From the sequence record OR339795: a DNA stretch of 64,000 bases, one strand, 5' to 3'. The stretch is from Escherichia phage phi456. The notes beneath the pieces were generated by a model. That model was not told where the DNA came from. It did no database searches and saw only the letters and a program-made list of their open reading frames with translations. Within the stretch, counting starts at the first letter, position 1, and each line of letters begins with the position of its first letter. Both the position numbers and the translations under genes were made by a program. This document shows positions 5,156 through 17,891 of this stretch, piece after piece.

Positions 5156-6268
5156 TTAGAATTGGTAGGTCATACCAACAGCAACGATGTTGTCGGTTGC
5201 AACCTCAGATCTTTTGGTAAATTCACTTTCATCAATCAGGTTGATCTTGTAGTCAACGAAAGCGGACATATTTTTGTTGAAGTAATAAGTCGCACCCAAG
5301 TCGATGTATTCAACCAGATCCTGGCTGCCGAACGCACCAATATTTTCACCGCGAGAGTGCAGATAAGCGATGGACGGACGCAGGCCGAAATCAAACTGGT
5401 ATTGAGCAACAGCTTCAAAGTTTTTCGCCTTGTTCGCGATAAAGTCATCACCGAAGACAGTCATATTCTGAGTTTCAGAATAAGTTGCAGCCAGGTAAAT
5501 GTTATTTGCGTCATATTTCAGGCCAGTAGCCCATACTTCAGCAGTTTTACCAGAAGCATTCAGAGGATCCTTTTTAGCATAGGATACCTGCCCATCAGTA
5601 CGATCAGATTTTGCATAGGTTGCACCAACGCCAAATCCTTCATAATCGTAAGTAGCAGACAGACCAAAGCCATCACCATTAGATTCAACTACGTCACGGC
5701 CTTTCCAGTTGTTCACTTTTGCAGCACTATCATTTTTACCTTGATACTGCAAAGCAAAGTTCAGACCATCAACCAGGCCGAAGAAATCATTGTTACGGTA
5801 GGTGGCTACGCCAGTAGCACGCTGGGTCATAAATACATCGGTCTGAGTCCAGGTATCTCCACCAAACTCAGGCAGCACGTCAGTCCAAGCGCCAATATCA
5901 TAAGCTACACCATAGTTGCGACCATAGTCGATTGAACCATAATCAGCAAAACGGAGGCCAGCAAATGCAAGACGAGTTTTATCTTTATCAGAGCCCTCAG
6001 ATTCAGTACGGTTACCTTTAAATTCGTACTCCCACTGACCAAAACCGGTTAACTGGTCATTAATCTGAGTTTCACCTTTGAATCCCAGACGAGCATAAGT
6101 CTTATCTCCGTCATCACTAGCTGAAGAAGAGAAGTAATGTTCTGCGTTAACTTTGCCGTACAGATCCAGTTTATTACCGTCTTTGTTGTAGATTTCAGCT
6201 GCTTGCGCAGACATTGCCATCAGGACAGATGCTGCAACCGCAGAGAGTGCCACTGTGATTTTTTTCAT
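5156..6268 (-). CDS. outer membrane general porin (OmpC/OmpF/PhoE family)
   Basis: 370 aa; signal peptide ending AQA, then [29 protein letters not shown] motifs and C-terminal ...YQF barrel terminus. Confidence 0.9.
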
Positions 6269-7009
6269 TTTTTTTGCCCTTTAGATTGAACTTTTCAGTA
6301 GAAAAGAAGTCACTGCGGACAAATGTTTATCTTTTTTGGATTCGTGTTTCAAGTTTTGCAAATAAAAATCAAGGTATTTTTGTGATCAAAATCACAAATA
6401 ATAGCCTTGAAAACCCAATGGACTATTAGAAAAAACTCAATTCACAGAATAAAAATTGACAAAATAGATCAAAAAACAATCAAAAATAAGCACAAAAGAC
6501 AAACAATTAAATTATCACAAAAATAATAACTGTCAAAAATAGATAGCCTGTTAATTAACAGGGCTTTAATGGATGTAGACTTGAAATCTACTTAAAAATT
6601 AGAATCAAATTAATTACTGCCGATTGGGTATTAAATTGAATCTATATTGTGAGAGTTAAAGACGATGTGTTTTAGTTATAAATGTTATTCCCTAAAATGG
6701 AGCGGTCTCATCGAATCCTGATTAATAACGAGCTAAGCTAATTCATTTTAGTATGTGTATATCTTTACCCTCTGAATATGCAATAAAGAAGAGATATTAA
6801 ACAATATGTAGCTTCAGGATTGACTCTGGAAGAATTAAAAGATCGACTAAAGTGTTCAATATGTGGTGAGCGAAACGCAAAAATTAATTTTTTTTGATCT
6901 AACATATTAGGTAACGGCTTGCTTCCATAACCTAAAGCAAGCCACTACGCGTTTACTTTAAGTACACAATTAACATATCAGAACAGATTATTTTTGCACA
7001 ATCAGGGAG

Positions 7010-7321
7010 TTAATATACGATCTGGTCTACATGATCACCAAAATCATCATCGTCGTCGTCATCATCGCCACCATCTACTGCTGGCCAATCAACAAACCAG
7101 CCAGCGTAAAGATGCAGCGTTCGGAGAACATCACTTGCGGGAGCATCAAGGGTGTTAACGAATCCCATATAGCTATTGGGATTTGCCCCAGCTATGGCTT
7201 CAGCGATCATGTCCTCGGTAATGTCACCGGAGATAATGCTTAAACGCCCGGAAACTTCTTCATTATCATCAAATTCGATAATGGCATCTCCGCCTAATGG
7301 CGCTGCGATTTTAATCTGCAT
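7010..7321 (-). CDS. small highly acidic protein with an 8-Asp tract (distal gene of the dar operon)
   Basis: 103 aa, about 24 D/E against about 3 K/R, run DDDDDDDD; overlaps the ddrB stop. Confidence 0.5.
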   Translation of the reverse strand: MQIKIAAPLGGDAIIEFDDNEEVSGRLSIISGDITEDMIAEAIAGANPNSYMGFVNTLDAPASDVLRTLHLYAGWFVDWPAVDGGDDDDDDDDFGDHVDQIVY

Positions 7322-10298
7322 TATTTAGCTCCTTTGCCACACCTAATAACAGTTCCAGCAATCCGTCACCATTCATCAGTGATGCGGCAGCGGCCTCTTT
7401 GTCATGATACAACTGAAGAGCCATAGAGAATACTTCCGTTGCTGACGTTTTGGAAATAGTCGGTGATTTCTGCCGAATTTTCCCGGTGTTACTTACTGAG
7501 GCTGGCGGGTATACCTTCGCCATATAAATATTACTCAATCGAGATCTGAAGCACCATTCAGGCTTGCCACGCCCACCGATATTAACGAAAGATGGCTTAT
7601 CCCCTTCAACATTGGCCTTCAGGAATGACCGGGCTTTCTCTAACAAACCAGGGTTACTGTACTCAAGATGATGACCCAGCTCGTGCCACAGTGCACTTGC
7701 ATTTTCATCGTTCAAATTGACAGCAACAACACCATTAAGATTTGCATATGCCCTTCCCTGGTGGTGAACCACCTTTGATAAGGTCGAAATTTTACCGCCG
7801 GTCAGGCGATAAATATCAGCAAGTTCCTTGCGCAGGTCTATCCCACCATTCTGTCCAGCGCGGGCTTCTTCCACTTCTTCCGTGATAAAAGAGTCGGCCC
7901 ACTCAAGAGCTTTTTCTTCAGATACGGATGAGTTTGCGATCGCACTGTTCATGGCAGATAACACTTTCTCGTGGACCGAACCCATTCTTCGCTGATTCAT
8001 TTGCCAGCGTGTCTGCGGGTTATATGAGAATCGCTTAAGTAGTTGGTCAAGCTGCTCAAGTTCTTCTTCACTGACATACCTTTTAGCCTCACCAATAATG
8101 CCAGGGAGAATATTGCCGTTAGGATTAAACGCTCGCGAAAGGAAGAGTTTCAGCGCCCCCATGCCCTCCGATGCTTCAATATCACCAATAACCCGGTTAA
8201 CAATGGCCGCACTCTTCGGATTAGCATCCGCCAACGCTCTGGCTACAATTTGCAGGGACGATACGACCTCACGCTGCATATCAGTCCTGATCTCATCAAT
8301 AAACTCTGGCGTTATGCCGTGCTCTTTAAGGATATCCCTGCCTTCCGCCGTTACCCCATCGATATCACCGACATGTTTATTAACCCGACTTTGCAATGCC
8401 TTAAATGCCTTCAGAATTCCACGGGAATCATCCGCTTTACTAACGGCCTTCCTGAATGCTGGCAAGAAGTCTGAGTTAACCTCATTTTGTTGATCGGCCC
8501 ACTGAATGGAGGCTTCTTTCATCTCGTCCAGAGTCAGATCACCCAACGCGGTATGGTCTGTGAATATGAGCGACAACCTCTGAACCATTTCTGCCAATGG
8601 TGATGCCGAATGCGCCGCGCTAAGGAATGCTTTCACCCTGGTTGGGCGAATGGAAAACCAGTCAATAGCTGGTGGCATATCTCCGTTTTTTATCGCCTGC
8701 GCTATCTCGTCAAAGCCATCGCGCCCAAGGGAAGATGCGTGATTTAACAAGCCGCGAAGTAACGAATTGCTGATACCGAATAATCGGCACCATTTTTTCA
8801 CGTCGGCAACAGGCATTCGAACAAAATGCGCAAGCACTTGTACAAGCTGTTCATCCTGGGGATCTGTGCGGGAAAGCAGCCTGATCAGATGAATAATGTC
8901 TTTGATGCCGGATGCCCGATGTAATAGCAAACTGGTATACGGAGCAACACCGTTGTAACTACCGCCGGAAACGGACTCGAAAAGACCGCCGGATATCCCT
9001 TGCATGCCTTCGTTTTCCAGTTCCTGAGACACCTGGCGAAGGATATCCTGTAACGACACATCGCCGCCGCCAAACATATCCCCCAGCGCCTGGCCCTGGT
9101 GCTGTAACTCATCATTGATACGTTGAGCCATCAACTTAAAGGCGGTGGCCATACGCTTCGCGCTACGGTTATTCGCGACGATGAACAACGCGAGAGCTTT
9201 CACTTCCGGGGCTGTTTCGCTGAACATATCCCCCTGAGCAATAACATCGGTAATATGTTGGCCTGACTCCTTCGATTGCCTTACCAGGTCTACCGCATCT
9301 TTCAATGCCGCCAGCGCCTTTTTATCGAGACTATCCGCTGTCTCAATGCCATCAACAATAGTTGTCACAGCCTGCTTGTGCGCTTCACCTGATAAAGCCT
9401 GCATCTGGACAAAATCATTGGCTGCCGCATTAAGCGCCGTCAGAACATTACGCATATCTGGATCAGGTTCTTCTGCAACCATCCTTACCAGGCGCGCATC
9501 CTTATATGCCTTGGCAAAGATCGCGTTTTGTATACGGTCTACAAGTTGCCGTGTTGGTCGCCCATCTTCAGTTACAAGGCCAGCCGCCTGTGTGGCACCA
9601 ACTTGCGTCATAAATCCGCGAATAAACGCGTTATTACTGCGGCTAAGCAGATCTCCGCTTTCTGACGGGTTAAAAAGCGCCATCATCGCCGGTGTTATGC
9701 TGTCGGCATCAACAAAAGCCTTTTCACTGGCTGCCATTTCCTGGAGATCAGAAATATTTGAGTCCTTGGCAAACTGAACACGGTCAACCTTCGTTAACCG
9801 GCGGCGCACCAGTACCGGAGCCGTCATTGATTCAACCTTTTCAGGCCGTATGCCGAATTCGGTCGCATGTTCAATCAGGTACTCCCGATACCGATCCGCA
9901 TTACCGTCCTGATAGGCTTTAATGATCCCCATGGTCCGCCCATTACCTGACTCAACGGCATTGTCCTCACCAATTATCGGCGCACCATGGCTGGATAAAC
10001 CGGAATCAGTAAGCTGAGCAGGCCGCAAATCTTTGGATATCTGGTTAACCTGAAGAAGGCTGGATGCGCGGGTCCGGTCGCGCGGCTGAAGTTCCTGGGG
10101 ATAGTCAGGATTAATTTTCCCATCCAGAGTATTGGATACCAAAAGAGCTGAGGCATCGACGATATCAAACGCTGTTTTTACCTCGTCTCCCTTCGCTGTC
10201 ACCACATACGAAACCCGCCCATAATCGGGCAGGTTCTTAAGCAGCTCGATCAGCGTTTCTATGCTGGTGGCCATTACCACCTGATCGCTTAAGCTCAT
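7311..10298 (-). CDS. ddrB: DdrB-like antirestriction-associated protein
   Basis: 995-aa ORF in the hdf-darA-ddrA-ddrB order; contains WHELGHHLE (HExxH) near the C-terminal quarter. Confidence 0.5.
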   Translation of the reverse strand: MSLSDQVVMATSIETLIELLKNLPDYGRVSYVVTAKGDEVKTAFDIVDASALLVSNTLDGKINPDYPQELQPRDRTRASSLLQVNQISKDLRPAQLTDSGLSSHGAPIIGEDNAVESGNGRTMGIIKAYQDGNADRYREYLIEHATEFGIRPEKVESMTAPVLVRRRLTKVDRVQFAKDSNISDLQEMAASEKAFVDADSITPAMMALFNPSESGDLLSRSNNAFIRGFMTQVGATQAAGLVTEDGRPTRQLVDRIQNAIFAKAYKDARLVRMVAEEPDPDMRNVLTALNAAANDFVQMQALSGEAHKQAVTTIVDGIETADSLDKKALAALKDAVDLVRQSKESGQHITDVIAQGDMFSETAPEVKALALFIVANNRSAKRMATAFKLMAQRINDELQHQGQALGDMFGGGDVSLQDILRQVSQELENEGMQGISGGLFESVSGGSYNGVAPYTSLLLHRASGIKDIIHLIRLLSRTDPQDEQLVQVLAHFVRMPVADVKKWCRLFGISNSLLRGLLNHASSLGRDGFDEIAQAIKNGDMPPAIDWFSIRPTRVKAFLSAAHSASPLAEMVQRLSLIFTDHTALGDLTLDEMKEASIQWADQQNEVNSDFLPAFRKAVSKADDSRGILKAFKALQSRVNKHVGDIDGVTAEGRDILKEHGITPEFIDEIRTDMQREVVSSLQIVARALADANPKSAAIVNRVIGDIEASEGMGALKLFLSRAFNPNGNILPGIIGEAKRYVSEEELEQLDQLLKRFSYNPQTRWQMNQRRMGSVHEKVLSAMNSAIANSSVSEEKALEWADSFITEEVEEARAGQNGGIDLRKELADIYRLTGGKISTLSKVVHHQGRAYANLNGVVAVNLNDENASALWHELGHHLEYSNPGLLEKARSFLKANVEGDKPSFVNIGGRGKPEWCFRSRLSNIYMAKVYPPASVSNTGKIRQKSPTISKTSATEVFSMALQLYHDKEAAAASLMNGDGLLELLLGVAKELNNAD

Positions 10299-10310
10299 CC
10301 CTGTTACGCC

Positions 10311-10676
10311 TTATGCTGCCTCTTCAATGTTGGCGGCTATCCATGCCGCCGTGTGCTGTTTAACCTGGTCCAGGTCGATGTATGTGCCAACATATTGACT
10401 CAAGTCCTGCAAGGTACCGATAAATGCATCTGTGCTCTGATCGACGAATTTATCAGCCAGGAAATCAGCAACCAGTTTTGGCACACCATCATGTACCGAA
10501 GGTTGTTTTTCCTCGCCACTACTGCCGCCGGACGCGCCGTACCCCATCTGTTGCATGATCTGGTCAATTTCATCGCTGATATCCAGCAACTCCATGCCAC
10601 TCGCGGTAGCCGCTTTGGACATCAGAGCATCCAACTTATCGCTGAGATCCATTAACTCAATAGCTGATAGTGTCAT
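10311..10676 (-). CDS. ddrA: DdrA-like protein
   Basis: 121-aa ORF between darA and ddrB, overlapping the darA stop; assigned by synteny. Confidence 0.5.
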   Translation of the reverse strand: MTLSAIELMDLSDKLDALMSKAATASGMELLDISDEIDQIMQQMGYGASGGSSGEEKQPSVHDGVPKLVADFLADKFVDQSTDAFIGTLQDLSQYVGTYIDLDQVKQHTAAWIAANIEEAA

Positions 10677-12592
10677 GCCGCTACCCCCGCTTTCTGGATT
10701 GCTACCAGCAGATCAGCCAGGTGGCGAGCAGCGCCATTAACCAGCTCTTCGTTTTCCTCAAAACGTCCGGCAGCCTGAAGGGCTGCAATCGCTTCCCGGA
10801 CATTGCCCCGGGCGTTACGGATCTCCGCCATGTCAGTGCTTTGCATATCCATCACGTTATTGAGATATTCAATGGCTTTATTAGCCTCTGCATCTGCTTC
10901 GCTAACCGTTTCATCAGGCTGTGCCGGGGCCGGTTCTGGCTGAGTAATCTCACCGACTTCGGCCTGCAATGCATTGATCATGCTCTGCACCATTTTCTCG
11001 GTGCCAGCGCCCCCCGGAAACGCAATATTGGGGAAAGTTTTTTGAAACTGAGTCTTCAGCATTACGCGGAACTCGTCTGGTGAGCTGGTGGCCAGCTCCA
11101 GAGCTTTTTGTGCATATTTGCCAAACGGACCATTAGTAAGTGTCTTCGCCAGGAAGTCGAAAGAATCCTCGCGAGGCAATAACTTCAGGTCGTACTCACT
11201 CATTTGCTGATCAGAAAGCGGGGTATCGTAAGTAGCAATGCCGTAGCGTGCATATTCATAATACGGGTCACCTTCATCAGGGCGCGGCAGAATTGCTTTG
11301 TTACCTTCAGGTATTGCGCCAGGGGCCGCCGGACGCATTTGCAGGGCATATCGATATGCACCTACAGAGACTTCTGGTTCAGGCGAAGAGCTACCGGTAT
11401 CCTCCGCTGGTTCAGGTTCGACGTTTTCCGGTTTATGTTCTTCTGGTTGGACCAGGTATTCCGATACATTACCCGCTTTATAGGCTTTAAACAGCTTGCC
11501 GATCGCATCTGCCATGTCCACACCCTGTATGGATTTAGCCTTGATCATGTACACGCTGCCATCCGAATCGGTTAACTGGATATACCCTTCACCGTCCTCA
11601 ATGAATTGCTTCATTGATGCACCATTACTGAGCGTCACTTCCCCGTTCATATGCATACGATTTTTGATACTTGCAAGGCGATCCGTCATCGCGCGAGAGT
11701 GTCCACCAGTCATCCCCGCAGGAGCAATGGTTTCGCGCCCACCAGTGCGATTGAGCTGATCAATCTCCGTCTGCAAACGCTCATTCTCTTCATAAAGAGA
11801 ATCCGCTTCCGATGCAACAGCGTTAATTTTCTGCTCCAGATCTACCTTCTGCCCTTCTACCGCTGCCACCTGATCCGCGAGGTCGCTCATGGCATCCTCT
11901 TTCTGGTCACTGTCAGCCTGTAGTTGGGTTATTTCATCAACCAGGGCTTTTTTCTTCTTCTGCGCACGCTGGAATTTTGCCGAGTTTTTCTCTGCAAGGT
12001 TGGCAAGTTTCATGGTGACCTGCGCCAGCGTCATATCACGTCCACTCATCGGAGCAACGGTGTGAGTAACGTCTTTTTTATTCAGTAAGAACTGGAAAGC
12101 AACCAGCGTATCGCTATTGGTGATCCGGTTTTCCGCTGTCGGGCTATGAAACAGAATGCTGATAGTCTGACCATCACTGAGCGGAATAATGGCTGGCAGG
12201 ACCGGCAGCCCGTTAACGTTACGTGCCCGGCCAATTTCAGCCCCGCCGATCGCGCGTGCACCGTTCTGGGCCACATCCCCCGTTTTATCACTCCCCGCAG
12301 AGATTCCGGTACCATTCAGCTTCTGGTTCAATGCCCGGACAAATGCCTGCATGGTCCGGTGTAACTGCAAACGAGTAGAACTAATCGCCTCCAGTAAATC
12401 CGTAGCACACCAGTGGATCGGCGTGTCATAGAAGAACGTAGCCTCGATTTCCTCCAGGGTGTTGGATTCCGTCATCAGATAGCGGTCCTCACCGGCCATT
12501 AATGCGCGATATTCATCATCAGTCACTGGCGGGGGAAGCACGTCAAGCCCAGGCTTGAGCGTCACCCCTTTATTGATATTGAACTGTTCCAT
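10673..12592 (-). CDS. darA: DarA antirestriction head protein
   Basis: 639 aa, the size I recall for P1 DarA; shares the segment KNSAKFQ(R/K)... with the adjacent Hdf. Confidence 0.7.
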   Translation of the reverse strand: MEQFNINKGVTLKPGLDVLPPPVTDDEYRALMAGEDRYLMTESNTLEEIEATFFYDTPIHWCATDLLEAISSTRLQLHRTMQAFVRALNQKLNGTGISAGSDKTGDVAQNGARAIGGAEIGRARNVNGLPVLPAIIPLSDGQTISILFHSPTAENRITNSDTLVAFQFLLNKKDVTHTVAPMSGRDMTLAQVTMKLANLAEKNSAKFQRAQKKKKALVDEITQLQADSDQKEDAMSDLADQVAAVEGQKVDLEQKINAVASEADSLYEENERLQTEIDQLNRTGGRETIAPAGMTGGHSRAMTDRLASIKNRMHMNGEVTLSNGASMKQFIEDGEGYIQLTDSDGSVYMIKAKSIQGVDMADAIGKLFKAYKAGNVSEYLVQPEEHKPENVEPEPAEDTGSSSPEPEVSVGAYRYALQMRPAAPGAIPEGNKAILPRPDEGDPYYEYARYGIATYDTPLSDQQMSEYDLKLLPREDSFDFLAKTLTNGPFGKYAQKALELATSSPDEFRVMLKTQFQKTFPNIAFPGGAGTEKMVQSMINALQAEVGEITQPEPAPAQPDETVSEADAEANKAIEYLNNVMDMQSTDMAEIRNARGNVREAIAALQAAGRFEENEELVNGAARHLADLLVAIQKAGVAA

Positions 12593-12593
12593 G

Positions 12594-13205
12594 TTAATTT
12601 CCTGCTTTCAGTTGCTTAAGACGGCGTTTGAGTTCGCCATTTCGGGCCTTTTCGTTATTGAGTCGGCCTGTCTCCTTATCCAGCTTCGCCCGCAAATCAG
12701 TGATCTGCTGTTGATTGAAAGACACCGAGTTCTGAGCTGATTTATAAGCGGCAACCACCTGAGCATTCCGCTGTTTTGCTTCTTGCAGGCGCTGAAAGTT
12801 GGATTTAACTGCCGGTTTCTTGTCTACCGGATTGGCAACACGCTTCGCTTTGGCGATCAGTGATTTCTGGAATTTTGCGGAGTTTTTGCGAGCCGCCTGT
12901 CCCATGACGGTACCAAGCGTCTTGATATCCGGCGACTGAGCGTTAGGAATAGCTTTTCCATTCAGTTTCACAGACGATATATCGCCAGTATCGTTTACCT
13001 GTATGGCAAGAATTTGTCCGTCGTTAAGAACCAGCTTTGCGGTTTTAACTTTAACGCCATCTTTCGTTGTTGCGCGGTTGCTGGAGTCAACCTCAATTAC
13101 CGTAACCCCGGTTTTATTGATCGCCGCGATAAGGGATTTCAGCCCCTTTTCATTAACCTGGTCAAAATCGACCGTTGCATACTTATTTTTCGTCATCTGA
13201 CACAT
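12594..13205 (-). CDS. hdf: Hdf (homolog of DarA fragment)
   Basis: 203 aa; ARKNSAKFQKSLIAKAKR matches DarA AEKNSAKFQRAQKKKKAL; first gene of the operon. Confidence 0.65.
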   Translation of the reverse strand: MCQMTKNKYATVDFDQVNEKGLKSLIAAINKTGVTVIEVDSSNRATTKDGVKVKTAKLVLNDGQILAIQVNDTGDISSVKLNGKAIPNAQSPDIKTLGTVMGQAARKNSAKFQKSLIAKAKRVANPVDKKPAVKSNFQRLQEAKQRNAQVVAAYKSAQNSVSFNQQQITDLRAKLDKETGRLNNEKARNGELKRRLKQLKAGN

Positions 13206-13626
13206 CCTGTGCGAGATTTATTACGTAACTTCTGCGGATTTGCTGAGTAACAGGGAAAATCCGATACAACGGGTTAATGAACGAGTCGCCATGCGTAACC
13301 ATGACGTTGAAATGCCACAGTCGCTCTCCTTTACCCATATATTCAGTGGGTATGTACAACCATTCACTGTTTTCGCCCTGTTCAGCCGACGTCAGACAAC
13401 GTTGTTCGCCTTCAATCACTGTCGTCGGCTTCTGAACATCGCGGATCCAATATCTGACCGTTGCGCCGCGCAAAAACGGGAATTTAGACCGGTATTTGAA
13501 CGGCACCCGGATGAAACCCGGTTTAATTTCCACATCACCAAGTTCTAAATGCGTGATGTCCTTGCGTTTTAGCAAATAGCGATCGGCTAAGGCTAACGCA
13601 AGAACGCATACACCCCAGCCAATCAT
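13183..13626 (-). CDS. lydB: LydB-like antiholin
   Basis: 147-aa ORF immediately downstream of the holin, overlapping hdf; N-terminal hydrophobic segment. Confidence 0.5.
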   Translation of the reverse strand: MIGWGVCVLALALADRYLLKRKDITHLELGDVEIKPGFIRVPFKYRSKFPFLRGATVRYWIRDVQKPTTVIEGEQRCLTSAEQGENSEWLYIPTEYMGKGERLWHFNVMVTHGDSFINPLYRIFPVTQQIRRSYVINLAQDVSDDEK

Positions 13627-13952
13627 TTCCCGCCTCCCTTTTTCACCAAACTTGTAAGAACATTCAGAATGCTATCGATATTCACTCGTTTCATCCCTGA
13701 AATCACCTCATGACCGTTATTGCTGGCTATCGTTACCATTAAGTACGTAATTGATAACTCCCAGCCCTCGTGTTGCCCCAATAGGTACGCCACCGCGCCA
13801 GCTGTCACTGCAACAAAGATCTCCGTAACCAATCCCAACAAATTGCCAGACTGGCGACCGTCTCGGACATCCATCAGGAACGTGCCTATCCCACCAATTA
13901 CTGAAAGCAGGAGCGCAATAGCAACTGGAGCTAATTCCTGTGTGTCAAGCAC
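13623..13952 (-). CDS. lydA: LydA-like holin
   Basis: 109 aa with hydrophobic helices and charged C-terminus (KKGGGK). Confidence 0.55.
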   Translation of the reverse strand: MLDTQELAPVAIALLLSVIGGIGTFLMDVRDGRQSGNLLGLVTEIFVAVTAGAVAYLLGQHEGWELSITYLMVTIASNNGHEVISGMKRVNIDSILNVLTSLVKKGGGK

Positions 13953-14019
13953 AAGTTCCCTCCTACGTTGTCAGGAGGTAATGGTATGCAAAGTAACTTC
14001 TCAACCGGTCATTTGTTGC

Positions 14020-14301
14020 TTAAGAGGCATTTCTATTGAGGTGCGAATCGATAATCCTTTGTAACTTTTCAAGAATGAGCCTGTTATTGATGCTGCAAAT
14101 AATAGTCACGCAATTCTGAAGACTTTCATCCATACCCTTATATTCCGCGAAATACATGCCTATAAAGCCTGCAAGTACGGCAGCAATACACTCGGCCATC
14201 AATTGCCTGCATGACGCTTCGTAACGTTTTTCACGAACCCCATTCAGAAACGAATGCACCCCGCCAAGGATGGAGAGGAGCATTATTGTGAAATCACACA
14301 T
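14020..14301 (-). CDS. small membrane protein (holin-like)
   Basis: 93 aa with two hydrophobic segments; first ORF of the lyd-dar transcription unit. Confidence 0.35.
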   Translation of the reverse strand: MCDFTIMLLSILGGVHSFLNGVREKRYEASCRQLMAECIAAVLAGFIGMYFAEYKGMDESLQNCVTIICSINNRLILEKLQRIIDSHLNRNAS

Positions 14302-14428
14302 AACTATTTCCTTAATAGTGAATTAAATATCATTGGGAAACGGTATGTACTTTGTGATTTCCACACATACTGGTTTTTGTTAATTAAAATCCGCAGCTTG
14401 CTATAAATAACGATAGTGAGCAGAAAAT

Positions 14429-14473
14429 ATGCTAATAGGCTATGTACGCGTATCAACAAATGACCAAAACACT
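14429..14473 (+). pseudogene. cin: Cin/Gin/Hin-family serine invertase remnant (first 15 codons only)
   Basis: ATG then MLIGYVRVSTNDQNT, the conserved invertase N-terminus including the catalytic Ser context; all three downstream frames lose invertase similarity. Confidence 0.6.
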
Positions 14474-14772
14474 GCTTTACTCAGACGCCACCGGAAGGAA
14501 AAATACGTATTTGCGGAGAGAATGGACAACCCGCATGGGGGGATGTTCCTCCTCCAACGAAAGAAGAGCTAATGGCTATTGCAGAAGCCAGGAAATTAAG
14601 CTTAAAGGCTCAAGCGGACTTTGAAATCGCCTGGCGATAGGATGCGGTTGATGCCGGTATCGCGACGGATGAGGAAACCGCCGCGCTTTCTGAATCGAAG
14701 AAATGCCGGATCCTGCTGATGCGCGTTGATACAGCAAAACCCGTATGGCCTGTCAATCCGCAGGATATTTAA
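14464..14772 (+). pseudogene. tail fiber assembly protein C-terminal domain fragment (U'-like) with in-frame amber
   Basis: Frame opens next to the cin remnant: ...GKIRICGENGQPAWGDVPPPTKEELMAIAEARKLSLKAQADFEIAWR, then TAG at 14638-14640, then [43 protein letters not shown]. Resembles the conserved C-terminal domain of Mu/P2/lambda tail fiber assembly proteins. Confidence 0.5.
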
Positions 14773-14986
14773 CGGGGGCGTTGTAGGTGGTGACATATTC
14801 AAGCAGTTCTGTTGGATATGTCACCGTTGCTGCATCTCGCTCTACGTTAAATGTATCCGCTCCCCAGATAACACACTCCCTCAAAAATGCCTCCACCTCT
14901 GGCGAGACTTCAACCGCATCATCAGGTCGCTCTTGTTCAGAAACATAAAAACCAACGGTCGTTGGGCTGAAATACATATTCTCCAT
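14753..14986 (-). CDS. short ORF downstream of tail fiber gene (possible truncated tail fiber assembly U)
   Basis: 77 aa, 3 bp after the S stop; lacks the conserved C-terminal chaperone domain, which is instead found inverted on the plus strand. Confidence 0.35.
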
Positions 14987-14988
14987 AT

Positions 14989-17445
14989 TTAGTATCCTAT
15001 TGCTTCAAAATGCAAAGTCGGAATTTCGCCGAGATTGGGTGTCGTATACGACACAGTGAATCGCGTTCTTGATACGTCAGTGCCAGAATCAGTATCGCGA
15101 TGCGTTGCCAGTGATTTCCCAGCCATTGATGACTGGGTCGAAAAGCTGTAACTCGCTAGTGTTGCCAGCGTTGCTATTTGTGCATTTGGGAATTGTCTGG
15201 GGAAATTAACCCTGTAGTAATGGGTGTAGTACGTCACCCCACCAAGCACCTGCGCGTTGAAGTTACCAACTGGTGTCAGTGTCACAGTGCCAACCTGTCG
15301 AATCATACCATTTGGGAGAATATCCCAGGCAGTTTGTCCGTTTCGCGACATACCAAATGCGGACATGTCCGGGAGTTGATTATTACCGGTTCCGACATCC
15401 CGTTTTGCCGCTTCTCCCAATTGAAGGTATGCGAGAAGACCAGCAACATCCTTTCCACTCAAATTAGTCAGCGTATTGTCCAGCGGTTGTTTGCCCGCCA
15501 GTGCGCTCTGTACTTCGCTTTTGCTGTAGGCATCCAGATCTTTAGGCGTAAGCGTAATATCCTTCGTGCCGTCAAACGGAACGCCGTTGATATTCCGTGC
15601 AGTCTGTAGTTTTGTGGCAGTTGCAGCATTACCAGTGGTGTTCTGATTACCCGTAGTGTTTACACCTGGAAGATTAATATTGGCCGAGCCATCAAATGCC
15701 ACACCGCCAATCGTGCGTGCTGTTTTCAATTTCGTCGCGGTGTCGGCGTTCCCTGTCAGTGCCCCGGTGATCCCGCCGTTGAAAGTCTGGCGTGCACTCC
15801 ATGTGTTAGCCGTACTCAACAGGGGGATCTTTTCACCGCTGGTACCGAGTTCTCTTAAACCAAGGTATTGGATAACGGCCAGTGTGCTTGTTTTAGCCAG
15901 AATATCGCGACCGACTGACGTTAAATCAGTCTGAGCTACCGTATCCTTACCAGTGAAATAAGGCAGTTTGTTTGCACCAGTCGCAAGGGCAGCGAGAGCG
16001 GTTAAAGTTGCATCCAGAGGCTGTTTGCCTGCCAGCGCATTTGTCATTGTTGTCGCAAAGTTCGGGTCATTGCCAAGTGCTGCGGCAAGCTCATTCAGGG
16101 TATCAAGAGCTTCTGGTGATGAACCAACCAATGCGGATATGGCAGCTCTTACATAAGCGGTCGTAGCAATCTGCGTGTTATTCGTACCCTGTGCAGCGGT
16201 AGGCGCAGTAGGGACACCCGTTAATGCAGGGCTTGCCAAAGGCGCTTTGAGAGCCAAGGCATTGTTGATAGTTGTGCTGTAATTCGGGTCGTTATTGATC
16301 GCAGCAGCTATTTCTTTAAGCGTATCCAGTGTGCCAGGCGCACCGTTGATAAGTGCAGTTATAGCTGCCTTAACAAAGGCTGTATTTGCGATCTGCGTGT
16401 TATTCGTACCCTGTGCAGCGGTAGGCGCAGTAGGTATTCCCGTTAATGCAGGACTTGCTAAAGGAGCTTTAAGAGCCAGAGCATTGTTGATAGTTGTGCT
16501 GAAATTCGGGTCGTTATTGATCGCAGCAGCTATTTCTTTAAGCGTATCCAGTGTGCCAGGTGCACCGTTGATAAGTGCCGTTATAGCTGCCTTAACAAAG
16601 GCTGTATTTGCGATCTGCGTGCTATTTGTACCTTGCGCTGCCGTCGGCGCGGTTGGCGTTCCTGTCAGACTCGGGCTTTCTATTGGCGCTTTGGTATCAG
16701 CCAGATCTTTTATAGACTTAACAGCTTTAGGGGTAGCCGCCATTGTTTCGCTGTCGCTGTTAGTTGCGCTACTGAGCTGAACTAATCCCTTTTGCGTTGT
16801 GCTTGCATCCTGTGCCGTATACTTGCTTTTCGCCAGATCGTAGGCTTTTTTAACTGCCAGCGAACTTGCAGCAACATCACTTCTGGTACTGGTTACAGAG
16901 TCTGAAATATCAATGCCGATCGAGCGGTTGATACGCTCGGATGTATCAATCATCTCCTGGGTAATGGCAGATACACTAGCAGGGATATTCACCGTACAAA
17001 CAAGCAGCTCCCCATCTCCTAACTGATATGAATCGGTATAGGTTCTGGCAACAAATTCAGCCGCATGAATATGTGACGCGGTATTCACCTGGTAGGTATC
17101 TTCTCCAAGGAGGTATCTTCCCTTCAGCACAATTGCATATTTCTTGCCTGCACTAAGTGCAAGAGAAATATCCTTACGTTGCTGAATAGTTACCTGGTAA
17201 AATTCACCAATATCCACCGACGCCGCGCCTGCGGTTTTATCACCATCCACTGAGGTAATTAACAGGTTCATCCCACCGCCAGGCTTAGGTAAGAAACCGG
17301 CATAAAATCCCGGGTCAACAATCCCCCTGAATTTTCGGTTTAGCGCGGCTGACAGATATGGTTCGTGGTATTGCACATCGGCCACCAGAGCCAACGACTC
17401 GGATGATGGGTAAGTAACCGATGTAACAACTGTAACGTCATTCAT
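14989..17445 (-). CDS. tail fiber protein S (constant plus variable part)
   Basis: ORF 14989..17532; probable start at Met 17445 (MNDVTVV), 12 bp after R. Three 73-aa tandem repeats NALALKAPLASPALTG...KAAITALINGAPGTLDTLKEIAAAINNDPN typical of tail fiber shafts. Confidence 0.75.
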   Translation of the reverse strand: MNDVTVVTSVTYPSSESLALVADVQYHEPYLSAALNRKFRGIVDPGFYAGFLPKPGGGMNLLITSVDGDKTAGAASVDIGEFYQVTIQQRKDISLALSAGKKYAIVLKGRYLLGEDTYQVNTASHIHAAEFVARTYTDSYQLGDGELLVCTVNIPASVSAITQEMIDTSERINRSIGIDISDSVTSTRSDVAASSLAVKKAYDLAKSKYTAQDASTTQKGLVQLSSATNSDSETMAATPKAVKSIKDLADTKAPIESPSLTGTPTAPTAAQGTNSTQIANTAFVKAAITALINGAPGTLDTLKEIAAAINNDPNFSTTINNALALKAPLASPALTGIPTAPTAAQGTNNTQIANTAFVKAAITALINGAPGTLDTLKEIAAAINNDPNYSTTINNALALKAPLASPALTGVPTAPTAAQGTNNTQIATTAYVRAAISALVGSSPEALDTLNELAAALGNDPNFATTMTNALAGKQPLDATLTALAALATGANKLPYFTGKDTVAQTDLTSVGRDILAKTSTLAVIQYLGLRELGTSGEKIPLLSTANTWSARQTFNGGITGALTGNADTATKLKTARTIGGVAFDGSANINLPGVNTTGNQNTTGNAATATKLQTARNINGVPFDGTKDITLTPKDLDAYSKSEVQSALAGKQPLDNTLTNLSGKDVAGLLAYLQLGEAAKRDVGTGNNQLPDMSAFGMSRNGQTAWDILPNGMIRQVGTVTLTPVGNFNAQVLGGVTYYTHYYRVNFPRQFPNAQIATLATLASYSFSTQSSMAGKSLATHRDTDSGTDVSRTRFTVSYTTPNLGEIPTLHFEAIGY
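15850..15875. other. cix/gix/hix-like invertase crossover site inside S
   Basis: TTCTCTTAAACCAAGGTATTGGATAA resembles the Gin/Hin crossover site family as recalled (AAACC core, GGATAA half-site); lies where an Sc/Sv junction would be (about 290 codons from the S C-terminus). Confidence 0.45.
16060..16700 (-). repeat. tandem approx 219-bp direct repeats (about 3 copies) within S
   Basis: Near-identical DNA blocks, e.g. GCGATCTGCGTGTTATTCGTACCCTGTGCAGCGGTAGGCGCAGTAGG recurring at about 16158 and 16377; they encode the 73-aa protein repeat. Confidence 0.7.
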
Positions 17446-17456
17446 CAAGCATATCC

Positions 17457-17891
17457 TTATGCTGTAGTCGTGTTTATGGCCATAACTGCGGTATATGTTT
17501 TGCCCACATACAGCGAGTCTTCCTGGACACAAATAATGGCGATTGGCTTGTTCTCGTTATCCAGAACAACCAGAGTGTTGAATGGGTAGTTTTTCCCTTC
17601 CTGCAACTGGCTTTGATCAAGGTCCATTCGGACAGTAATTATCCCGCCTGAGTAGGTTGGGACGAGGTTGATGGTGCAAAATTGACTGGTCAGTTCTGCC
17701 AGTTCGAAAGCCTTTGGCAGTTCTCCAATCTCATAAGTGCCATCTCCTTTCTTAGTAACCAGCGAACTGGTACCGAAAACGGCCTTGCTGATTAAAAATC
17801 GAGAGCCTTTGTTAATGGACGATTCAGCGCGCCGCTGATAGTAATAGTCCAACAACTGACTCTTATAGAGGTTTGTTGAGACGTCAGACAT
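17457..17891 (-). CDS. tail fiber-associated protein (P1 R-like)
   Basis: 144-aa ORF immediately upstream of S in the same operon. Confidence 0.4.
   Translation of the reverse strand: MSDVSTNLYKSQLLDYYYQRRAESSINKGSRFLISKAVFGTSSLVTKKGDGTYEIGELPKAFELAELTSQFCTINLVPTYSGGIITVRMDLDQSQLQEGKNYPFNTLVVLDNENKPIAIICVQEDSLYVGKTYTAVMAINTTTA

Follow-up and report, generated by a model that had tools for sequence, protein, structure and literature searches.

DdrB of Escherichia phage phi456 (sequence record OR339795) carries at its C-terminus a domain that very probably is a metallopeptidase of the zincin superfamily. In the window analyzed here, a stretch of 64,000 nucleotides, ddrB occupies positions 7311-10298 on the minus strand (stop codon included, with an ATG start, according to the open reading frame (ORF) list and its translation), and it specifies a 995-residue component of Dar (defence against restriction), a classic anti-restriction system that is packaged in the phage head. 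Residues 791-995 (about 205 residues; positions 7314-7928, minus strand) very probably form a zincin, probably of the gluzincin type, the metallopeptidase ("MPTase") of Iyer et al. 2017, and would most likely serve as a processing enzyme, for which we infer catalysis, metal binding, and a substrate.

The original prediction had noticed an HExxH motif in a 995-residue ORF of the dar operon at 7311-10298. The ORF exists and belongs to that operon, its strand being minus, and the motif is found at residues 872-876 (window 7671-7685) within the segment WHELGHHLEYSNPG (residues 871-884; positions 7647-7688, minus strand), in which zinc is predicted to be bound by H872 and H876, with E873 as the general base. 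This is the sole HExxH in DdrB, for whose composition 0.026 would be expected. At the scale of the window, a bare HExxH is not significant, because one was observed against 0.61 expected among the 99 ORFs of at least 100 residues; the motif is more than a chance occurrence because it is conserved among homologs. When 1.84 billion cluster representatives were searched exhaustively with an HMMER profile, 231 relatives scored E ≤ 1e-3, and 156 of them were retrieved. The HExxH lies within the matched domain in 154 of these 156, with the caveat that it is the strongest part of the profile that recruited them, and the other two match solely downstream of the motif. About 30 of the profile hits nonetheless align across the entire domain of some 190 residues. 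The motif is also kept in 70 of 70 diverse genomic loci (viral contigs, and bacterial and archaeal genomes), so that the conservation across homologs on which the original prediction had staked its claim is borne out. A word-indexed search with residues 751-995 recovered just near-identical proteins and two partial relatives at about 50%.

The conserved residues extend well beyond the motif. R849, H872, E873, H876, E879, Y925, and E955 are invariant in alignments of 31 and 44 sequences (the 44 being 23-53% identical to the query), and A852, G875, H877, E914, Y930, S958, and G986 are conserved at 90% or more in alignments at 23-53% identity. The resulting signature of the clade is RAxAN ... HExGHHxE[FY]SNP ... 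E ... Y ... TEVxS. The codon of R849 (7752-7754, minus strand) belongs to the RAxAN segment, in the loop after the first modelled beta-strand and upstream of the active-site helix; that of the tyrosine Y925, invariant in both alignments, is at 7524-7526 (minus strand); and that of E955 (7434-7436, minus strand) is part of the TEVxS segment, where a downstream helix begins.

In the AlphaFold2 (AF2) model of the domain, the HExxH motif is located within helix 78-91 (model numbering), R849 is model residue 59, between strands 52-55 and 67-70, and the invariant E955 directly precedes helix 166-175, at its start; E879 and E914 are conserved as well. A beta-hairpin insert of about 50 residues separates the two helices in both the model and the alignment. 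The elements of a zincin fold are all present: an N-terminal helix, a beta-sheet with an edge strand, and an active-site helix carrying HExxH. An earlier model from a 4-sequence alignment was discarded at a predicted local distance difference test (pLDDT) score of 41.5. Foldseek against the PDB gave nothing significant for the domain, nor did searches of PDB sequences with two profiles; no Pfam family rose above threshold for the domain or for any of the 44 domain homologs, and NCBIfam has no model for it. Nearly all sub-threshold matches among PDB sequences and Pfam are to zincin families, and the missing Pfam match, which reflects model coverage, does not exclude membership of the MPTases. 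Foldseek against viral predicted structures matched seven uncharacterized phage proteins. On the strength of the model, the C-terminal domain of DdrB is a zincin whose nearest solved relatives are the M34/M90 gluzincins, and alignments and model together make an active gluzincin-type peptidase probable. Structure prediction thus placed the motif where the original prediction had hoped to see it, in the active-site helix of a zincin fold; of the two natures it had offered, "metalloprotease or SprT-like active site", conservation and fold support the former, and the latter finds no support.

Gluzincins of the M34/M90 kind combine HExxH with a glutamate on a later helix, and the PPEPs add a catalytic tyrosine (PMC12828418). 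By analogy with His153, Glu154, and His157 of PPEP-3 (PMC12828418), H872 and H876 on the active-site helix would hold Zn2+, and E873 would be the general base, activating water. In PPEP-3, Glu197 on helix alpha7 is a ligand (PMC12828418), and E955, on the later helix, is the best candidate for the third zinc ligand of DdrB, as judged from alignments, model, and analogy. By the same analogy, E879 would sit in the second shell or else serve as an alternative ligand, and Y925 is a candidate transition-state stabilizer, after the catalytic Tyr190 of PPEP-3. E879, Y925, and R849, for which a role is presumed, would line the pocket.

That DdrB is a metallopeptidase is already known, as a prediction, from the P1 annotation since 2004 and in print since 2013 and 2017. 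The reference record of phage P1 describes ddrB as "unknown protein function; possible metallopeptidase", and the annotation of Escherichia phage JL22 as "putative metallopeptidase". Lenart et al. 2013 counted the ddrB family among suspected zincins that had not yet been described, and Iyer, Burroughs, Anand, de Souza, and Aravind explicitly identified a C-terminal MPTase in P1 DdrB in 2017 (PMC5512222), with a core of an N-terminal helix, a three-stranded sheet, the HExxH helix, and a second C-terminal helix with a glutamate. The enzymatic role that the original prediction could not place in established knowledge therefore already has its place there. No biochemical or mutational test of the DdrB motif was found in the literature that could be searched.

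The homologs show in what company the domain occurs. Those 31-37% identical in the zincin domain sit in syntenic lydB-hdf-darA-ddrA-ddrB operons, and a homolog lacking ParB likewise follows Hdf-like and DarA-like genes. Of 60 different proteins, ddrB-ParB is present in 20, and a DarA_N gene lies upstream of at least 26; most of the remaining proteins tested are fusions with Phage_Mu_F (inteins interrupt two of these), and one homolog has the architecture InPase, two ParB domains, and zincin. In 59 of the 70 loci listed, the zincin domain is at the extreme C-terminus, with a tail of 0-6 residues. In these fusions, with ddrB-ParB, InPase, and Phage_Mu_F, the domain thus stands at the end of proteins that begin with modules known to lie inside the capsid or to associate with the portal. 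Multidomain fusions, Dar-operon and phage contexts, and the presence of DdrB in virions (PMC9024508) also match the context of polyvalent proteins. Inteins or Hint domains (Intein_splicing, PT-HINT) were seen in or beside Phage_Mu_F in a Scytonema metagenome-assembled genome (MAG; L171:2799-5573) and in Brasilonema (L175:869-3748). One metagenome contig (L087) carries two adjacent giant zincin proteins, at 6001-11634 (1877 residues) and 12128-17634 (at least 2398 residues), with a MuF domain in one and an ADP-ribosyltransferase toxin domain in the other; the two form a pair of polyvalent proteins, and their surroundings are phage-like. In the Methanomicrobia MAG JdFR-19, a protein with MuF and a DdrB-type zincin (L189:1687-2847) is followed by an acidic ORF of 121 residues on a contig binned as archaeal, and if that binning is right, the module of zincin and acidic ORF reaches beyond the Bacteria.

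A small acidic ORF also follows ddrB in the window. The gene hxr (7010-7321, minus strand) encodes 103 residues with an isoelectric point (pI) of 4.05 and a net charge of -21, and it accompanies the zincin domain as a conserved partner gene. It overlaps ddrB by 11 nt, with its ATG within the final ddrB codons, and 7 nt upstream of this start the ddrB codons AAGGAG make up a Shine-Dalgarno sequence; judged from this arrangement, the translation of hxr is coupled to that of ddrB by way of this internal signal. DdrA and Hxr are the two most acidic predicted proteins of the window (both with pI 4.05), and their genes flank ddrB; a paralogous relationship between them was rejected, there being no detectable similarity. 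In 64 of the 69 loci with downstream sequence (about 93%), an ORF of 82-127 residues begins between -58 and +18 nt relative to the stop codon of the zincin ORF, which it usually overlaps. Among the 52 unique adjacent small proteins, pI is below 4.5 in 73% and below 5 in 90%, as compared with 4.5% and 18% of the window ORFs. These small proteins fall into a cluster of 25 members including Hxr, a mostly cyanobacterial cluster of 17, a cluster of 5, and five singletons. The cleaned profiles of the two large clusters align co-linearly (hhalign 88.5%, E 2.7e-6), which suggests that the enterobacterial and cyanobacterial proteins are probably homologous; pattern scans seeded by the small-protein alignments failed, conservation being too low. 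In the reverse direction, by protein search and context look-up, three of three independently retrieved Hxr homologs directly follow a ddrB-like gene. Further loci of the family include L083:8927-9241, L084:6830-7153, L086:7941-8300, L088:3686-4000, and about 60 more.

The P1 record labels hxr a possible Xre-like repressor. Hxr and its positional counterparts gave no Pfam match to a helix-turn-helix (HTH) domain even at E ≤ 10, and no solved structure or named family, including no solved HTH protein, matches the profiles of the Hxr family. A repressor cleaved by the protease, after the analogy of ImmA/IrrE, was rejected for want of an HTH signal. Iyer et al. 2017 (PMC5512222) do not mention the partner gene, and this partnership is the only part of the present analysis that may be new.

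Several accounts of what the domain does have to be weighed. P1 virions contain DdrB (39 peptides, 59.5% coverage), which aids the incorporation of DarB (PMC9024508), and loading proceeds in order, with DdrB following Hdf and DarA. Because DdrB is thus a capsid-internal Dar protein that, according to the literature, is needed to load DarB, the protease would most likely act as a processing enzyme within the assembling head or just after injection, possible substrates being DdrB itself, co-packaged proteins, and host proteins. A narrower version confines the enzyme to its own chain: Iyer et al. proposed, from a reported 76-kDa head form, that the MPTase autoprocesses DdrB (PMC5512222), in which case a ParB-containing N-terminal fragment of about 76 kDa would be packaged and the protease domain discarded. 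Such a fragment would end near residue 697, upstream of the zincin domain. However, the reported 59.5% virion coverage is hard to obtain from residues 1-697 alone, for which an in-silico tryptic digest gives a maximum of 50-56% if all peptides are fully cleaved and of 69% if missed cleavages are allowed; because it exceeds the former range, it mildly favors the packaging of more than residues 1-697. P1 also has a prohead protease of its own, Pro, which cuts its major capsid protein after Glu120 and could be what processes Dar proteins as well (PMC9024508), and the conserved partner gene and the MuF fusions suggest more than self-cleavage, so that autoprocessing as the only function is a possibility that we hold rather doubtful. 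The peptide coverage is also a hint that in P1 DdrB (L002:1501-4488) the protease domain itself may be present in virions. A zincin fold that is catalytically dead and retained for capsid targeting or protein-protein contacts would resemble what is seen in edema factor and Certhrax, whose lethal-factor-like binding domains are non-catalytic zincin folds. Non-catalytic derivatives, however, typically lack HExxH, which here is present in every one of the 70 loci, and the two histidines and glutamate of the motif, two further glutamates, the tyrosine, and the arginine are invariant at 23-53% identity; at the level of the alignments this set bears the mark of selection for an active site, and a dead domain is improbable. 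Still less credible is a DNA-dependent protease like SprT, Wss1, or Spartan that clears restriction enzymes and the like off the injected DNA: these DNA-protein-crosslink proteases share with DdrB the zincin superfamily and the HExxH helix, but the combination that marks them, a downstream third histidine with closest structural similarity to WLM/SprT, was not found. A chance HExxH without functional meaning would agree with the count at the window scale, but its conservation over 231 relatives and 70 loci, and its position in the zincin active-site helix, have already refuted this idea, and we give it practically no weight.

The processing-enzyme reading can be refined, without contradiction, by taking the neighboring gene into account. 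Tentatively, the zincin domain would be the enzymatic half of a two-gene unit and the coupled acidic protein of the Hxr family would be cognate to it, as an inhibitor, an immunity protein, or a chaperone; in the producer cell the protease would be held inactive, and after injection it would act on a host target, possibly a defence protein. As part of the same tentative proposal, the Xre-like label of hxr would be a mis-annotation. The adjacency and acidity of the small ORF, the reciprocal context, the probable homology of the enterobacterial and cyanobacterial versions, the coupled start of hxr, and the placement of the domain at the very end of its proteins all point in this direction. Hxr is also absent from the list of P1 virion proteins (PMC9024508), and toxins of the MuF type that end in a metallopeptidase domain and have an immunity gene downstream form a known class (PMC5576092). 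On the other hand, adjacency would also be expected of a chaperone, of an assembly factor, or of an anti-restriction protein that mimics DNA and works independently, and the three sequence clusters and five singletons are just partly unified. CRISPR interference screens, in which P1 ddrB and hxr are non-essential and ddrB is dispensable for plaques (PMC10695390), are neutral on toxicity. The gene arrangement, by analogy, supports a module of protease and partner (inhibitor or chaperone) but does not prove it. It is conceivable, though we would not count on it, that such a module is common to capsid-delivered proteins of both the ParB (Dar) and the MuF type, ranging from P1-like phages of enterobacteria to elements of cyanobacteria and archaea, and that it is effector-immunity-like, a host target being cleaved rather than DdrB trimmed only.

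Compared with known systems, the domain is the same object as the MPTases that Iyer et al. (PMC5512222) describe for polyvalent proteins of phages and plasmids: the order of secondary structures in the model and the invariant E955 fit their description, and the acidic residue that their phage-type clade has three positions past HExxH corresponds to E879. The DdrB clade differs in that it falls below threshold in every Pfam model, including the polyvalent-protein ones, and in having its own signature, the beta-hairpin insert, and a partner gene of the Hxr family. The MEROPS M34 zincins (PPEP-1/2/3, and the ATLF-like anthrax lethal factor) are 13-15% identical to DdrB, with neither a sequence-level match nor a Foldseek hit; the spacing from HExxH to the glutamate is 79 residues in DdrB versus about 40 in PPEP-3, and the M34 proteins are secreted enzymes or toxins, whereas the DdrB domain belongs to a phage protein that is intracellular and packaged in the capsid. 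MtfA (Mlc titration factor A, peptidase M90) has no significant sequence similarity to DdrB, one clade member reaching E 0.092 to Peptidase_M90, and the biology of MtfA is unrelated. The MuF polymorphic toxins (Jamet et al. 2017, PMC5576092), 20% of which have a metallopeptidase domain, resemble the many non-ParB clade members that are Phage_Mu_F fusions with a C-terminal zincin followed by a small, tightly linked gene; this likeness is one of architecture and adjacency, and the N-terminal module of P1 DdrB is ParB-type, not MuF. Unlike the partners in the ImmA/IrrE (M78)-Xre and CapP-CapH pairs, Hxr is extremely acidic and has no detectable HTH, and its family has no HTH signature; the fold of DdrB is also closer to M34/M90 than to M78.

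The identity of ddrB itself is clear. The window is a P1-like phage-plasmid, its ddrB being 100% identical to that of JL22 and 98.2% identical in nucleotides to that of P1 (NC_005856), and phrog_2299 matches ddrB over its full length. The N-terminal ddrB-like ParB superfamily domain (residues 36-167; 9798-10193, minus strand) is found by Pfam PF18763 (E 1.7e-39; 135 bits, the cutoff being 27.6). Upstream on the minus strand are ddrA (10311-10676; DdrA-like PHROG match), darA (10673-12592; Pfam DarA_N/DarA_C), and hdf (12594-13205; Hdf-like PHROG match), each also annotated in JL22, and the order hdf-darA-ddrA-ddrB-hxr, with every gene on the minus strand, emerges from Pfam, PHROGs, and the JL22 annotation. 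By orthology, operon position, and its N-terminal ParB domain, the ddrB of the window is the DdrB component of a P1-type Dar system. A predicted ORF of 143 residues antisense to ddrB (9346-9777, plus strand) corresponds to the annotated P1 gene iddB ("internal to ddrB"). In the records of phage P7 (GenBank AF503408 / NC_050152), the features under the ddrB match are named prt and odaA, not ddrB and hxr, which suggests a naming or coordinate inconsistency in the P7 annotation. Downstream of hxr, a complete porin gene of the Gram-negative type (5156-6268, minus strand; Pfam Porin_1, E 3.9e-148; "ompD" in JL22) occupies the place of the IS1/isaB region of P1, a cargo gene on a P1-like phage-plasmid.

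What the present analysis adds to the known prediction is the confirmation of fold and deep conservation, a list of residues (H872, E873, H876, E879, E955, Y925, and R849), and the exclusion of a SprT-like reading. Because DdrB carries a well-conserved, probably active protease domain, at least one step of Dar is likely to be enzymatic, be it processing or the cleavage of a target, and not simple shielding of DNA, an idea that is already in the literature. The unstudied neighbor hxr is the most conserved partner of the zincin domain, and it may bear on how this protease is controlled.

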